Source: a virus
Taxonomy: Duplodnaviria; Caudoviricetes
Strand: one strand, 5' to 3'
DNA length: 64,000 bases
IMG/VR virus record: IMGVR_UViG_3300014059_000005
Coordinates: 1 to 64,000 of that record
Positions 10,692 through 13,624 of the stretch are shown piece by piece; within the stretch, counting starts at the first letter, position 1, and the number at the start of each line of letters is the position of its first letter. The notes beneath the pieces are model-generated. The model had not been told where the DNA came from, made no database searches, and saw only the letters and a program-made list of their open reading frames with translations. The position numbers were made by a program, and so were the translations under genes.

Positions 10692-10874
10692 ATGTTTCTA
10701 GTTAGAAAACCCGAGATTTGTGGGATTAGCGGTAGTTATCAGAATGTTGTTCTGCGAGGAGGGAGTTACATCGGGTTCTGTAGGAGAGGTTCATATCATA
10801 GGTCTTCCAGTCCCATTGAGTTCCGGACTAAGGTTCTCGGCTTCCGGGTAATCCTCAGAAAGAGAGACAAATGA
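10692..10874 (+). CDS. FGE/CLec C-terminal-like mini-protein 1
   Basis: MFLVRKP...VLRGGSY...LGFRVILRKRDK. Confidence 0.75.
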   Translation: MFLVRKPEICGISGSYQNVVLRGGSYIGFCRRGSYHRSSSPIEFRTKVLGFRVILRKRDK

Positions 10875-11047
10875 TCCTGATTGCTAGACCTAGGCCAATT
10901 ATCCAGGGCTCCGATCGTGTGTACCGGGGTGGTGGCTGGTACAGCAACGATCATAATTGTCGGTTGGCACGCCCCGAGTGTGTGCCAACCTTCCAGTACA
11001 ACGACCTGGGCTTCCGGGTAATCCTCCGAAAGAAGGTAGGCAAATGA
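10871..11047 (+). CDS. FGE/CLec C-terminal-like mini-protein 2 (58 aa, not in ORF track)
   Basis: MILIARPRPIIQGSDRVYRGGGWYSNDHNCRLARPECVPTFQYNDLGFRVILRKKVGK. ATGA overlap on both sides. Confidence 0.8.
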   Translation: MILIARPRPIIQGSDRVYRGGGWYSNDHNCRLARPECVPTFQYNDLGFRVILRKKVGK

Positions 11048-11223
11048 TCCTTATCGCTAGACCTGGACCGACTATTCGGGGTTCCCTCCGAGTGACCCAG
11101 GGTGGCAGCCGGCTTAGCGGTGACCTGTACTGCCGGTCGGCGTTCCGCAGTTGGTTCGAGCCGATGTTCCGCTATAGCAATCTGGGCTTCCGAGTAATCC
11201 TCAGAAAGAGGGATATGAAATGA
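11044..11223 (+). CDS. FGE/CLec C-terminal-like mini-protein 3
   Basis: MILIARPGPTIRGSLRVTQGGSRLSGDLYCRSAFRSWFEPMFRYSNLGFRVILRKRDMK. Confidence 0.8.
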   Translation: MILIARPGPTIRGSLRVTQGGSRLSGDLYCRSAFRSWFEPMFRYSNLGFRVILRKRDMK

Positions 11224-11426
11224 TTCTGGTAAGTAGACCTGGATCGGGTGTTCCTTCGGTTCTGGGGTATCCTGTGTTCCGTGGGAATGGTTGGAGCCAG
11301 CTCTTACCGGAAGATCGGGCGGCATATCGCTATGCCTTGCGTCCACAAGGATTCGATGATTATCTGGGCTTTCGTATCGTTCTCCGCAAAAGAATTGATT
11401 TGACTTTTCCGAATTCTGGGCAATAG
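11220..11426 (+). CDS. FGE/CLec C-terminal-like mini-protein 4
   Basis: MILVSRPG...VFRGNGW...RAAYR...LGFRIVLRKR. Confidence 0.75.
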   Translation: MILVSRPGSGVPSVLGYPVFRGNGWSQLLPEDRAAYRYALRPQGFDDYLGFRIVLRKRIDLTFPNSGQ

Positions 11427-11476
11427 TTGTCAGACACCGAATGGCCCTGTTGATGGAATATCCAGAAGGATACCGA

Positions 11477-11683
11477 ATGATTCTGATCGCTAGACCTAGG
11501 CCGATCTCTGATCCTCTGGCCTTTGCTTGTGTGCTCCAGGGCGGTAGCTGGTTCAGCAACGACAGAACCTGTCGTTCCGCTCGCCGCTACTGGCTCGGGC
11601 TGGTCTACCGGCACCGCAGCTACGGGCTCCGTCTCATTCTCCGCAAGAAATCTAATTCCAACACTCGAAGGGAGAAGCAGTGA
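11477..11683 (+). CDS. FGE/CLec C-terminal-like mini-protein 5
   Basis: MILIARPRP...VLQGGSWFSNDRTCRSARR...YGLRLILRKK. Own promoter 11400-11427. Confidence 0.8.
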   Translation: MILIARPRPISDPLAFACVLQGGSWFSNDRTCRSARRYWLGLVYRHRSYGLRLILRKKSNSNTRREKQ

Positions 11684-11988
11684 CACAAAGTTTGGAAGAG
11701 GTAACTGTTACACAGCATGCCTACCATAGGTGGCTGGAGCGAGTAGATCCCGCAGGATCTACTCAGGACATAGTCCAGATGTTCCGTATCTCCGATCCCA
11801 TTCCGCCAGTGGCTCCACAGCATGCCAATGTCGCTCGCAGGCGGTATCGCGATCGATTCCACTTCGTGGAGTTCGTGGCGAAAATCGAGAAAGGTTGCTA
11901 CGTCATCATCACCATCATGCGACGTAGCAAGGTAACAGGTCAGCCCGTAGGTCGTTTTCTGCCCCAGGCGGTATTCCAGGAGAGTTAG
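11680..11988 (+). CDS. hypothetical protein (HAYHRWLER motif)
   Basis: GTGA overlap with the previous gene. Confidence 0.6.
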   Translation: MTQSLEEVTVTQHAYHRWLERVDPAGSTQDIVQMFRISDPIPPVAPQHANVARRRYRDRFHFVEFVAKIEKGCYVIITIMRRSKVTGQPVGRFLPQAVFQES

Positions 11989-12270
11989 ATGTTCATCCGC
12001 TGCAACGAGATTGGCTACGTCAATCAGAACAAACCAGTACCGTTCGTGTTCAGCACCTGGCAGGTGATGGCCGCTCACCCGGAGATCCTGGTGGATGGAT
12101 CTCCGGGAACCAGGATCGTGCTTGCTGGGAATACTTCCTACAAGGTGGATATTCCCTTCGAGGAACTGTGCAAGCTGGTCTGGGCCTGGGATTCTCAGGA
12201 GAAATCCCAGGGAAATCCCCCAGTCCAGGATCTCCTGAAAGAGCGGCGATCCATCAACAAGAAGAACTGA
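11989..12270 (+). CDS. hypothetical protein
   Basis: AGGAG RBS, abuts the previous gene. Confidence 0.65.
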   Translation: MFIRCNEIGYVNQNKPVPFVFSTWQVMAAHPEILVDGSPGTRIVLAGNTSYKVDIPFEELCKLVWAWDSQEKSQGNPPVQDLLKERRSINKKN

Positions 12271-12306
12271 TCCGCGTTCTATTTCCTACTAACCAAGGAG
12301 ACTATT

Positions 12307-12828
12307 ATGGCGGGCGGTGACAACATAAGACATCCGAGTAATCCCTACCCCTACACCTTGCCAGGGGTAATGATCGAATCTCCCAATATCCAGGATCCCT
12401 ACGGATATCTTGCGACGGTCTACAACAACGACCCGGCGATCGTCCAGCGGATCACCGATCTGGAGACTCGCCTGAGGGCACTCCAGGAAAAGGTCCGTAA
12501 ACACCTCGATGAGGGCTCTACCGTCGATCAGGTGGTCTCCCAGATGCAATCCCATGTCCGAGCCCTCGAAAGAGACCGCAGTGCCCTGACGGACCGGGTG
12601 GGCGCTCTGGAAGCCCAGGTGAAGCTCCTGGGAGCCTGGAGGGAGGCTCACGAGGGGGTATACACGGCTCTGAGAGAGGATGTCCAGCAGGCTCTGGCCA
12701 GAAGTTCTGGGCGAACATCCAGAAGTTCTGGATTGCTTGCCACGGTACTGGATTGGGCTCTGTTCGGGTTCTTGTTGACTTCGCTGTCCGCTAGCGCCCT
12801 GATGATCCTGAAGGCGGTCTGCAAGTGA
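12307..12828 (+). CDS. coiled-coil protein with C-terminal TM anchor
   Basis: Heptad-rich middle, hydrophobic C-terminus, AAGGAG RBS. Confidence 0.7.
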   Translation: MAGGDNIRHPSNPYPYTLPGVMIESPNIQDPYGYLATVYNNDPAIVQRITDLETRLRALQEKVRKHLDEGSTVDQVVSQMQSHVRALERDRSALTDRVGALEAQVKLLGAWREAHEGVYTALREDVQQALARSSGRTSRSSGLLATVLDWALFGFLLTSLSASALMILKAVCK

Positions 12829-12832
12829 GGCC

Positions 12833-12887
12833 AGGATGGGAGGGACGAGATCAAGACTGTGGAATAACCTCGTGTCCCTCCCATCCT
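12833..12887 (+). ncRNA. solo dual-spacer stem-loop unit 3
   Basis: AGGATGGGAGGGAC-[GA GATCAAGAC TGTG GA ATAACCTCG T]-GTCCCTCCCATCCT. Confidence 0.8.
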
Positions 12888-12901
12888 CTGAGGAGTGAAT
12901 C

Positions 12902-13081
12902 GTGATACTCGTAACCAAACCTGGGCCGGTTAGCGAAGGAACACATCAAAAGATTCGGGGTGGTAGTTGGTTTACTTTCCACAGAGAGTGCCGATCATCG
13001 CTTCGTGGTGCCGTGATCGGTGCTGAGATCCACACTAACCGTCTGGGTTTTCGGGTCATTCTCAGAAAGAGGGTGTCATGA
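12902..13081 (+). CDS. FGE/CLec C-terminal-like mini-protein 6 (GTG start, not in ORF track)
   Basis: MILVTKPGPVSEGTHQKIRGGSWFTFHRECRSSLRGAVIGAEIHTNRLGFRVILRKRVS. GAGGAG RBS. Confidence 0.8.
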   Translation: MILVTKPGPVSEGTHQKIRGGSWFTFHRECRSSLRGAVIGAEIHTNRLGFRVILRKRVS

Positions 13082-13257
13082 TCCTTGTAACCAAATGTAA
13101 ATCGATTGGTGATAATCCCAACACGCTAGTAGTTCGTGGTGGTGACGTCTGGCTTAACCCGAGGGTGTGTCGGTCGGCGTATCGGTATTACAGGATTACG
13201 ATCACCTGGTCCCAGTATATGGGGCTTCGTATCGTTCTTCGCAAGAGGGTTCCATGA
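13078..13257 (+). CDS. FGE/CLec C-terminal-like mini-protein 7 (not in ORF track)
   Basis: MILVTKCKSIGDNPNTLVVRGGDVWLNPRVCRSAYRYYRITITWSQYMGLRIVLRKRVP. Confidence 0.8.
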   Translation: MILVTKCKSIGDNPNTLVVRGGDVWLNPRVCRSAYRYYRITITWSQYMGLRIVLRKRVP

Positions 13258-13439
13258 TCTTGATACCCAGGAAACGAGTTCGCGTCGTGGCTACCAATGC
13301 TGGAACGAGGTGTATCCGGGGCGGCGGTTGGTACACGCTAGGGGAGTGGATGACCTCGCTTTGCCGTATGGGCGATGTTGTAAGAACCAGAGAATATTCT
13401 CAGGGTCTCCGTATCGCCCTCCGCAAGAGGGTTCCATGA
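13254..13439 (+). CDS. FGE/CLec C-terminal-like mini-protein 8
   Basis: MILIPRK...RCIRGGGWY...QGLRIALRKRVP. ATGA overlaps. Confidence 0.75.
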   Translation: MILIPRKRVRVVATNAGTRCIRGGGWYTLGEWMTSLCRMGDVVRTREYSQGLRIALRKRVP

Positions 13440-13624
13440 TCCTCATCGACAAATCAGGTCCGGTGGTCTCGGGTCCGGGAGCATTGCCCGGCTTCCGGGT
13501 GTGGCGGGGCTCTCCCAGGGTTATGATCTCCCAGAACTGTAGGAGTGCAGTTCGCAACCACTATTATCCCACAGGGTTTTACACCATCCTGGGACTGCGG
13601 ATCGTCCTGAAGAAAAAGATTTGA
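13436..13624 (+). CDS. FGE/CLec C-terminal-like mini-protein 9
   Basis: MILIDKSGP...RVWRGSP...NCRSAVR...LGLRIVLKKKI. Confidence 0.75.
   Translation: MILIDKSGPVVSGPGALPGFRVWRGSPRVMISQNCRSAVRNHYYPTGFYTILGLRIVLKKKI

Follow-up and report, generated by a model that had tools for sequence, protein, structure and literature searches.

What is a tailed phage doing with a run of very small genes that keep one common scaffold, vary widely between its conserved blocks and resemble only the end of a lectin-type domain? The question arises from a window of 64,000 nucleotides, the whole stretch of DNA that was analysed, which belongs to a phage genome of about 139.6 kb (100% complete according to CheckV). 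The phage is found in wastewater and freshwater, and its host is probably a member of Planctomycetota. The original prediction had proposed nine ORFs, mostly chained by ATGA overlaps, between positions 10692 and 13624. All nine were found where expected, intact and on the + strand, and in six of them the start codon overlaps the TGA of the previous mini-gene by 4 nt (ATGA). In window coordinates they are as follows.

10692–10874, + strand: mini-gene 1, 60 aa, ATG start; family HMM E 4.8e-23
10871–11047, + strand: mini-gene 2, 58 aa; near the family consensus
11044–11223, + strand: mini-gene 3, 59 aa
11220–11426, + strand: mini-gene 4, 68 aa, with a longer tail; diverged, HMM E 7e-26
11477–11683, + strand: mini-gene 5, 68 aa
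12902–13081, + strand: mini-gene 6, 59 aa, GTG start with GAGGAG upstream; opens the second sub-array
13078–13257, + strand: mini-gene 7, 59 aa; diverged, HMM E 4.2e-27
13254–13439, + strand: mini-gene 8, 61 aa; shows the strongest erosion of all nine
13436–13624, + strand: mini-gene 9, 62 aa; closes the array

The scaffold common to the nine reads M-I-L-I/V, RGG.W, CRSA.R and LGFRVILRK, with wide variation between these blocks. Mini-gene 1, whose stop overlaps the start of mini-gene 2, departs from it the most (MFLV..., RGGSY, LGFRVILRKR). The resemblance claimed at the outset is real and far beyond chance: an HMM built from the nine ORFs scores each of them at E 1e-23 to 1e-28. The same model recovered 29 more copies elsewhere in the genome, giving a family of 38 that takes up about 5% of it. 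Across the family, the stop overlaps a possible next start in 32 of the 38 copies; that of mini-gene 5, for instance, shares bases with the GTG start of ORF 11680–11988, which follows it. At the scaffold columns, pi is about 0–0.2 at codon positions 1 and 2 and about 0.5–0.6 at position 3. This observed constraint, with the first two positions conserved and the third variable, points to translated genes under selection, and the scaffold of every copy is, as judged from these codon patterns, under purifying selection. Translation itself is inferred. One 200-nt contig from a sludge metatranscriptome matches positions 11503–11702, in the mini-gene 5 region, at 100% identity, which is no more than a weak hint of transcription.

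The copies are also stable. Among strains that are 98.6–99.98% identical, they are intact and mostly unchanged, and orthologous copies hold their places. Frame-disrupting decay in close relatives, the outcome that would have spoken for pseudogene debris, was not seen; the relatives retain intact frames. In one strain, mini-gene 3 carries a 1-nt deletion and a 1-nt insertion only 5 nt apart, so that its frame is preserved. Mini-gene 8 differs across strains by 15 nt and 10 aa, all within two variable loops, with scaffold and frame intact, and mini-gene 9 by 8 nt and 5 aa, likewise in frame.

The expected similarity to the C-terminal segment of FGE/C-type-lectin (CLec) domains was observed both with single copies and with the family profile. 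Three of the nine window mini-genes match PF03781 on their own, namely mini-gene 2 (profile positions 211–254, E 8.8e-4), mini-gene 3 (211–254, E 2.4e-4) and mini-gene 6 (210–254, E 5.5e-3), with scores of 16.8–21.3 bits that fall below the cut-off of 23.3 bits. With hhalign, positions 12–55 of the family profile fall on the C-terminal PF03781 columns that are absent from phage bodies (98%, E 2.5e-13). Searched against PF03781 proteins, the profile reaches E values down to 1e-25, with 563 matches among proteins of 25–147 aa, and it also matches 44,928 representatives (FGE-sulfatase proteins). Its best match in the PDB is TvpA residues 251–291 (E 1.3e-7), and FGE, EgtB and PorK were matched as well. 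The mini-genes span PF03781 positions ~209–254 only, the last ~45 residues of the domain.

No reverse transcriptase (RT) and no full-length CLec gene had been noted in the window, which is correct. The suggested search of the rest of the genome revealed no RT either, and did reveal a CLec gene that lacks its C-terminus:

88480–89487 (genome coordinates), minus strand: truncated CLec/FGE body gene, outside the window; the sole FGE body of the genome

This body gene matches PF03781 positions 7–207/208 only, and ends where the mini-genes begin. A whole FGE-sulfatase domain (~255 profile positions, with the WEW core) in a single polypeptide is provided by neither partner of this observed split, and on the profile alignments the mini-genes and the body are fragments of the domain rather than complete members of the family. 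The TGA of the body gene overlaps the GTG start of a mini-gene, and the body ORF has a fused mini-gene at its own N-terminus; the body protein also shows a weak match, below the cut-off, to the N-terminal region TIGR02996 (E 0.0016). In all four phage sources compared (this genome, P0271, L005 and L006), the body ends ~20–30 residues past WEW. The closest bacterial bodies come from Planctomycetota, at 47–52% identity, and these homologues are complete domains. In the diverged relative L005 there are ~29 mini-genes in 12 kb, as well as a body followed by a chain of mini-genes.

Complementation of a CLec protein in trans, one of the roles originally envisaged, is supported by this split and by co-folding. 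Body residues 130–335 folded together with window mini-gene 2 scored 0.94 in three runs, against 0.00 for the best of three controls; a score of 0.94 is reached by 58 of 80 solved complexes and by 2 of 110 mismatched pairs. At least 97% of contacts are common to the runs, the partner pLDDT is 85 or higher, and the mini-protein modelled alone has a pLDDT of 54. In the model, GFR of the mini-protein pairs with VWEW of the body, and body residues 313–325, which form a tail helix after WEW, touch the mini-protein. The co-fold covered only one of the nine window copies, mini-gene 2. It amounts to splitting a fold for which structures have been solved (FGE, TvpA, EgtB), so the model may have passed by memorisation. 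Docking in trans is inferred, and translation has not been directly shown.

The variable codons carry the AAC-to-NNC signature of diversity-generating retroelements (DGRs), though the genome has no DGR. Over 13 AAC-type columns, the 16 least-diverged copies have 83% NNC and 98% NNY codons, the background values being 38% and 56% (p = 3e-40). The NNY share is 83% in the 22 copies outside this least-diverged group and 80% in the nine copies of the window (p = 8e-8), the background again being 56%. Copy by copy, the NNY codons number 9/12 in mini-gene 1, 12/12 in mini-gene 2, 13/13 in mini-gene 3, 9/13 in mini-gene 4, 13/13 in mini-gene 5 (12 of them NNC), 11/13 in mini-gene 6, 8/13 in mini-gene 7, 7/13 in mini-gene 8 and 10/13 in mini-gene 9. 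On the suggested check for adenine bias, the signature is present, but it is strong in just three of the nine window copies and eroded in the other six. Compared with environmental sequences that resemble a template repeat, the mini-genes differ at ~65% of A sites and at ~14% of non-A sites, and even the best of these sequences leave 9–12 non-A mismatches. The signature is weaker in older copies, in which 30–40 of ~79 non-A sites have changed, yet scaffold residues, start, stop and length are retained. Differences between the closest paralogues, which are 82% identical, show no A bias.

The machinery behind such a signature is missing from the genome. PF00078 (RT) gave no match in it at E values up to 10, the RT motif pair occurs in none of its frames, and an AAC-rich template-like stretch matching the mini-genes is absent from it. 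An exact template repeat was not found in a search that comprised one 21-nt core and 401 sampled Planctomycetota genomes; these sampled genomes contain variable regions with the same fixed bases. In the DGR target hairpin, which lies shortly after the variable region, a GC-rich stem of 7–10 bp carries a GRNA loop of 4 nt (PMC3240598). Here, the LRKR codons repeatedly contain only a stem of 4–6 bp that closes a loop of 5 nt (CCTC-AGAAA-GAGG), and the mini-gene junctions fold no better than shuffled sequence (z −0.35 to +1.19). The earlier idea of domesticated DGR products is supported, and it is compatible with complementation in trans.

We give about even odds to the reading that the mini-genes are a stable library of DGR-written tips completing one scaffold in trans, in which translation, trans-docking and the DGR source are the inferred elements. 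Each mini-gene would be a separately translated unit encoding only the C-terminal beta unit of an FGE-type CLec fold, with a brief conserved lead (MILIARPxP) in front and a basic tail (ILRKR) behind, the codons of which also provide a ribosome-binding site and an overlapping start for the ORF that follows. The mini-proteins would dock in trans onto the single phage body and complete its fold, each presumably displaying a different ligand-binding surface (there are no binding data), and the outcome would be a hard-wired repertoire of binders produced during infection. The variable codons would first have been written by DGR-type adenine mutagenesis. As the phage has neither an RT nor a template of its own, the DGR would have been supplied in trans, for example by the host, or has since been lost; the copies are now passed on stably. 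With about 5% of the genome spent on it, and with its retention in diverged relatives, the family probably matters to the phage. Against this reading stand the lack of direct evidence of translation or binding and the ratio of one body to 38 mini-genes. In addition, the mini-gene fused to the N-terminus of the body could fill the docking site in cis. Many mini-genes also lie far from the body gene, immediately in front of genes for dCTP deaminase, DNA polymerase and sigma factors, a placement that also fits passive, non-polar cassettes.

Such cassettes would be fossil copies of a DGR variable region, spread by tandem duplication, with functionless proteins, and tolerated because each brings a ribosome-binding site and an overlapping start for the next gene. 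The ATGA coupling to unrelated essential genes directly downstream is in keeping with this, as are the decay of the DGR signature with copy age, the one N-terminally truncated copy (genome 108269–108409) and a copy number that varies between relatives, with seven mini-genes after the body in L005 and six in L006, the extra L005 copy being a chimera of its neighbours. We regard it as improbable all the same, since old copies retain scaffold, start, stop and length with codon position 3 saturated and positions 1 and 2 conserved, and the combination of a truncated body with many units is found again in diverged phages and other architectures. The mini-proteins might instead act on FGE-domain proteins of the host, such as DGR-diversified conflict-system sensors, either as decoys or by dominant-negative insertion into nascent domains in place of the C-terminal unit of the host. 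In bacterial conflict systems, those of Planctomycetes among them, a role as sensors or neutralisers has been proposed for FGE-type domains (PMC7159879, PMC10907252). Conservation of the body-contacting scaffold residues is family-wide and extends to the Planctomycetota homologues, and 38 mini-genes face a single phage body. Their position among replication and nucleotide-metabolism genes, which probably makes them early or middle genes, would suit such a role too. A poison, however, needs neither hypervariable loops nor a conserved truncated phage body, and the tail helix that touches the mini-protein in the model is common to all four phage bodies, which suggests co-adaptation with the mini-genes; we regard a host target as unlikely.

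The possibility that each mini-protein, alone or as a dimer, is a self-contained minimal lectin-like module that binds ligand without the body seems to us quite improbable. Natural proteins made of only two to four tandem units do exist (P0044, P0147, P0153, P0137), and the N-terminal MILI...GS lead is loosely like the first strand of an FGE domain; profile alignments, however, place this lead on the DPxGPxxG segment before RGGSW and not on strand 1, and every unit-bearing phage examined over enough sequence also carries a truncated body. Very doubtful, in turn, is a bank of cassettes moved beside the body at the DNA level by recombination or gene conversion, as in vls, pilS or shufflons, which had been among the original proposals and was not supported. 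Constant 5′ and 3′ ends do surround a variable core, array copy number varies, and in contigs from a single freshwater sample, 91–443 nt between mini-gene junctions are skipped at joints whose shorter side measures only 30–32 nt. Yet no tyrosine or serine recombinase was found in the genome (PF00589 and PF00239, no match), all copies within an array have the same orientation, the constant ends show synonymous differences between family members, and orthologous copies keep their positions in strains. An ATG start and an upstream SD-like motif are each present in 31 of the 38 copies, so the mini-genes do not meet the definition of silent cassettes (no start signals of their own and one expression site, as in vls/pilS). 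The body, moreover, ends in a stop, so that a cassette merely lying next to it would stay unfused. These start codons and SD-like motifs also speak against −1 ribosomal frameshifting at the overlaps, by which chains of mini-proteins, or body and mini-protein, would be fused into multi-unit proteins. The next ORF is always in the −1 frame and open for ~13 codons upstream of its ATG, a fused multi-unit protein exists in nature (P0121), and five in-phase G_GGA_AAG heptamers occur in another viral contig (L047), where each one leads into a −1-frame unit; the junctions of the phage studied here (C_AGA_AAG), however, do not match the canonical slippery heptamer, and we consider frameshifting highly improbable.

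Known diversification of binding proteins acts on DNA within one gene, through DGR retrohoming, inversion or gene conversion. In shufflons and invertible tail-fibre ends (R64 Rci, Mu Gin), DNA is inverted by a site-specific recombinase acting with inverted repeats. The layout described here is like a shufflon in having a single constant part and a set of neighbouring alternatives for its C-terminal end, but this phage has no recombinase, and its same-facing copies each have their own start codon. To the DGR proteins TvpA (Treponema denticola, PDB 2Y3C) and Mtd (Bordetella phage BPP-1) the mini-genes are linked by homology to the C-terminal variable region and by AAC-to-NNC codons. Unlike in those proteins, the variable region is encoded apart from the scaffold, in 38 ORFs of its own, and one truncated gene supplies the scaffold; the genome lacks an RT and a template repeat, and no target hairpin stands out clearly. 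DGRs can act in trans on distant targets, with up to seven non-adjacent targets per DGR and the smallest listed targets at 44 aa (Wu et al., PMC5758913), whereas the mini-genes sit in a phage without a DGR, outnumber any case listed there and have mostly diverged by now from any single template. DGR-diversified FGS/CLec sensors of conflict systems (PMC7159879, PMC10907252) belong to the same domain family, and the closest bacterial bodies are planctomycetal; these sensors, however, are cellular and have their domains in one piece, joined to NTPase, vWA or adaptor modules, while the phage version is split and has no effector domain.

If the library reading is true, diversity would be stored as many small genes whose products are joined to a single scaffold after translation, a new route to combinatorial binding diversity, and the phage would offer a natural split-protein scaffold usable for binder engineering. 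Candidate targets of the binders are host defence, the host surface and competing phages, none of which is established. No paper describing a split scaffold with tip mini-genes was found in the literature. More tentatively, and with less than even confidence, we propose an antibody-like germline repertoire at the protein level, in which an invariant lectin-fold scaffold would be combined by fragment complementation with any of dozens of hypervariable, separately translated tips, the tips having been written by a DGR that is not encoded by the phage (e.g. the host's) and acts in trans on phage DNA; at least three other architectures seem to share the principle of one body and many tips. This raises the question of whether a DGR of the cell can alter phage genes during infection. 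The survey of DGRs expects not, as remote targets are not expected to occur for phage-associated DGRs (PMC5758913).

The other architectures that seem to share it comprise proteins built of two or three tips in tandem, with a body next to them, tips attached to the N-terminus of the body, and −1-frame tip cassettes behind slippery heptamers.

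The window makes up positions 1-64,000 of one 139,665-bp virus record, complete by CheckV. Its last 99 nt (139567-139665) are identical to its first 99 nt (window 1-99), and contigs from other samples (L014, L016) bridge the record's end to its start, so the genome is circular or terminally redundant, though the record is classed as linear. The virus, a tailed phage, encodes its portal at 30992-33055 and a tail fibre at 41429-45052. Its genes occupy the + strand up to about 87 kb and the - strand over the remainder. The phage or its strains are present in wastewater, freshwater, and aquaculture metagenomes, and 8 of the 11 studies listed with them contain half or more of the words sampled. 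BLAST of the region against GenBank phages gave no match.

An ORF listing recovered all nine small ORFs on the + strand where they had been predicted, arranged in two arrays:

10692-11683, + strand: array 1, five mini-gene ORFs
12902-13624, + strand: array 2, four mini-gene ORFs

Each of these mini-genes, numbered 1-9 in order, encodes only the C-terminal variable unit of an FGE/C-type-lectin domain. The start codon is ATG in eight of them and GTG in the other (12902); the predicted ATGA-type chaining applies to six of the nine, whose starts overlap the preceding stop by 4 nt. Their alignment also bears out the common scaffold, with M-I-L-I/V, RGG.W, CRSA.R, and LGFRVILRK placed around two highly variable stretches. 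Between the sub-arrays are three ORFs of 102, 93, and 173 aa, to none of which a family can be assigned; the first (102 aa) begins at a GTG that overlaps the mini-gene 5 stop.

The proposed kinship with the FGE fold was only partly recovered by PF03781 itself: three of the nine match positions 210/211-254 of the 255 in the profile, with scores just under the cut-off. A profile built from the family strongly matched FGE-sulfatase proteins, and in profile-profile comparison mini positions 12-55 correspond, with 98% probability, to the columns at the C-terminus of full-length homologues. The best match of solved structure is the variable protein TvpA of a diversity-generating retroelement (DGR), at residues 251-291 of 294, the stretch that forms its variable region.

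An HMM made from the nine window copies revealed 38 copies genome-wide, comprising the nine on the + strand and 29 on the - strand, the latter in nine clusters at 87.9-137.8 kb. An ATG start is present in 31 of the 38 and a purine-rich SD-like motif upstream likewise in 31, which in chained copies is supplied by the LRKR codons of the preceding copy. In 32 of the 38, the terminal TGA overlaps a potential start codon for the ORF that follows, and many copies lie immediately upstream of core genes with no relation to them (dCTP deaminase, ATPase, the UDG/exonuclease part of DNA polymerase, sigma factor).

A C-type-lectin gene lacking its C-terminus, sought outside the window, was found. The sole FGE body of the genome (88480-89487, - strand; L002:4483-5487; E 8.7e-39 in a six-frame search) spans profile positions 7-208 only, and its TGA shares bases with the GTG that starts a mini-gene, upstream of which lies a GGAGG motif. 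In this genome, in P0271, and in the related loci L005 and L006, the body continues for only about 20-30 residues past the WEW motif, and all four have a charged helix in common there. The closest homologues in bacteria, among them proteins of Planctomycetota and proteins labelled TIGR02996, extend through RGGSW...GFR, the segment that the minis encode and that the phage's own body lacks. The N-terminus of the body ORF, in this genome and likewise in L006, is a mini fused in frame whose stop codon has been lost, joined to the body through a helical stretch that weakly matches TIGR02996 (E 0.0016). This fused mini may represent a circular permutation supplying a default tip in cis; the bare body could also be produced from an internal ATG with an AAGGA motif inside the ORF.

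The best-supported reading of this arrangement is a split FGE-type lectin fold, in which one body gene would be completed by many separately translated tips. The tips, written by a DGR, would dock onto the body in trans, so that infected cells would produce a stable repertoire of binding sites internally; both docking and translation are inferred. Since the minis are found among replication and nucleotide-metabolism genes, and the tail fibre has no FGE part, we infer that they act within the cell and not in receptor binding by the virion.

Other explanations were weighed against this split fold. The arrays might be a DNA cassette bank; no tyrosine or serine recombinase was found in the genome, and in a codon alignment of the 38 copies scaffold diversity was about 0-0.2 at codon positions 1+2 and about 0.5-0.6 at position 3 (for example, at the RGG block, at the two arginines and, within LGFRVILRK, at G, R, and L). 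Because the scaffold is conserved at positions 1+2 and variable at position 3, the copies appear to be translated genes under purifying selection, and this pattern is the mark of old genes constrained at the protein level, not of a DNA repeat, translation again being an inference. The only transcript evidence is one 200-nt metatranscriptome contig overlying mini-gene 5 (11477-11683), for which DNA carry-over cannot be excluded. The minis might alternatively be autonomous mini-domains; neither a mini alone (pLDDT 54) nor a natural two-unit protein alone (pLDDT 40) folded confidently, and these low single-chain values are uninformative, not evidence of disorder. It is also conceivable that the minis poison host FGE-domain proteins, or that they are merely passive plug-in cassettes.

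Co-folding, which had been suggested for the peptides with a truncated FGE domain, bears on the split fold. Body residues 130-335 with mini-gene 2 (10871-11047) scored 0.94 in three runs and the best of three controls 0.00, on a mark that 58 of 80 solved complexes and 2 of 110 mismatched pairs attained; as our own alignments were used, these counts are only approximate. Contact agreement between runs was at least 97%, the partner pLDDT was 86-87, and that of the body was 90 with mini-gene 2 versus 49-58 with unrelated partners. In the model, the mini GFR is paired with the body VWEW, and the phage-specific tail helix of the body (residues 313-325) also contacts the mini. Since FGE-type folds have solved structures, the pass may reflect likeness to these; the modelling indicates that the pieces are compatible and is not proof of binding.

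No reverse transcriptase was found in the whole genome, in line with its reported absence from the window, and neither a reverse transcriptase motif pair nor an AAC-rich template-like stretch matching a mini-gene is present there. The adenine bias for which pairwise differences between paralogues were to be inspected is absent, and with all 38 copies pooled, NNY is only 69% against a 56% background. As grounds for excluding a DGR, these two results are misleading, as the 16 least-diverged copies show. In these, the non-variable bases are almost fixed, synonymous sites included, while 13 codon columns vary at positions 1+2 and position 3 stays C, the AAC to NNC signature of a DGR.

Codon classes at the 13 AAC-type columns
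16 least-diverged copies: NNC 83%; NNY 98%; p 3e-40 (NNC vs 38%)
Other 22 copies: NNC 49%; NNY 83%; p 1.7e-21 (NNY vs 56%)
Window nine: NNC 45%; NNY 80%; p 8e-8 (NNY vs 56%)
Background, long genes: NNC 38%; NNY 56%

Within the window, the full signature is kept in mini-genes 2, 3, and 5 and mostly lost in mini-genes 7 and 8. The inferred template reads N-R-V-N-R-G-G-S-W-N-N-N..., which we take to be the usual form for FGE-type DGR targets, and the fixed bases of the minis include a phage-specific 3′ end (…CTGGGCTTCCGGGTAATCCTCAGAAAGAG). Among 94 metagenome stretches matching a 21-nt core are AAC-rich template-like sequences that agree with these fixed bases at 94%; between them and the best minis, differences affect about 65% of A sites, as against only about 14% of the others. 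The exact donor template is not among them, the best leaving 9-12 non-A mismatches. Four of 401 sampled Planctomycetota genomes match weakly, with already-diversified variable regions that contain the minis' fixed bases. Failure to find the donor in these two collections does not show its absence. Taken together, these sequence patterns indicate that adenine mutagenesis wrote the family, which later drifted. A DGR survey lists remote targets, as well as targets down to 44 aa, and expects no remote targets for phage DGRs (PMC5758913). The DGR target hairpin described by Guo et al. (PMC3240598) is not clearly present in the phage, and hairpins at mini-gene junctions are no more stable than those of shuffled sequence.

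Close strains keep every mini-gene frame, contrary to the decay that would have marked the copies as pseudogene debris. One strain is 99.98% identical over 5.6 kb, and another (98.65% identity) has one change over four mini-genes versus 40 in the neighbouring dCTP deaminase gene. In two DNA runs compared with the window, a deletion in mini-gene 3 is offset by an insertion 5 nt away, which restores the frame, and mini-genes 8 (13254-13439) and 9 show 10 and 5 residue differences, all ten in mini-gene 8 being confined to the two loops. These comparisons give no sign of frequent rewriting today. Contigs of one freshwater sample show mini-to-mini joints; they were discounted as evidence of rearrangement, the shorter side being only 30-32 nt.

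Parallel layouts occur in relatives and in other sources:

Layouts of FGE bodies and units in relatives and other sources
L005/L006, diverged phage: about 29 minis in 12 kb, and a body then six or seven chained minis
L008, marine phage contig (TARA scaffold, 128.7 kb), 8468-10777: six 89-143-aa proteins in tandem, two or three units each
L020:4659-5855 and L021:4812-5858, viral contigs: one ORF, three or four units upstream of a truncated FGE body
P0121 (731 aa): single chain of four units, body, five units
L047:5532-6268 (IMGVR_UViG_3300020197_000087): body then five tandem unit cassettes in the -1 frame

The L008 array adjoins a 153-aa FGE body in which both domain ends are missing (profile 32-193), and the body in L020/L021 stops 24 residues past WEW, a permuted layout with several tethered tips. 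The layout of L047 raises frameshift fusion as a further rival to separately translated tips. Its body ORF reads through the five TGA-bounded cassettes in the wrong frame, and an in-phase slippery heptamer, G_GGA_AAG, enters each cassette just after the unit-frame stop, at five sites about 144-150 nt apart; this locus is a candidate for programmed -1 frameshifting that would choose among alternative C-terminal units. The window mini-genes carry starts of their own. Most of the 80 IMG/VR FGE loci inspected are ordinary whole domains, so one body with many units is a recurring but minority theme. Nothing was found in IMG/VR with the body protein alone, with a degenerate GFRVILRKR motif, or with two patterns resembling a template, and a full-text literature search returned only DGR and FGS-sensor literature, with no paper on stand-alone variable-region genes with a truncated scaffold.

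An extra mini-gene in one relative (L005:7195-7598 compared with L006:5633-5857) is a chimera of its two neighbours, and therefore unequal crossing-over alters array copy number. Shortly upstream of the first window array, 9300-10330 is GC-rich, without a convincing ORF, and contains many short direct and inverted repeats, among them a perfect 20-nt inverted pair (10013-10032/10134-10153). Fourteen stem-loop units, GGACG-N25-TGTCC, with loops all exactly 27 nt long, are distributed over 10611-16151 (+ strand). Nothing in Rfam matches them, and no mini-gene matches the 10-mers of their loops. Units at 10611 and 12843 lie just upstream of the two sub-arrays and another (13701) just after the last mini-gene. 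The remaining ones flank a 317-aa ORF (14723-15676) without a Pfam family, whose only match is a PHROG 'transposase' (E 2e-9).
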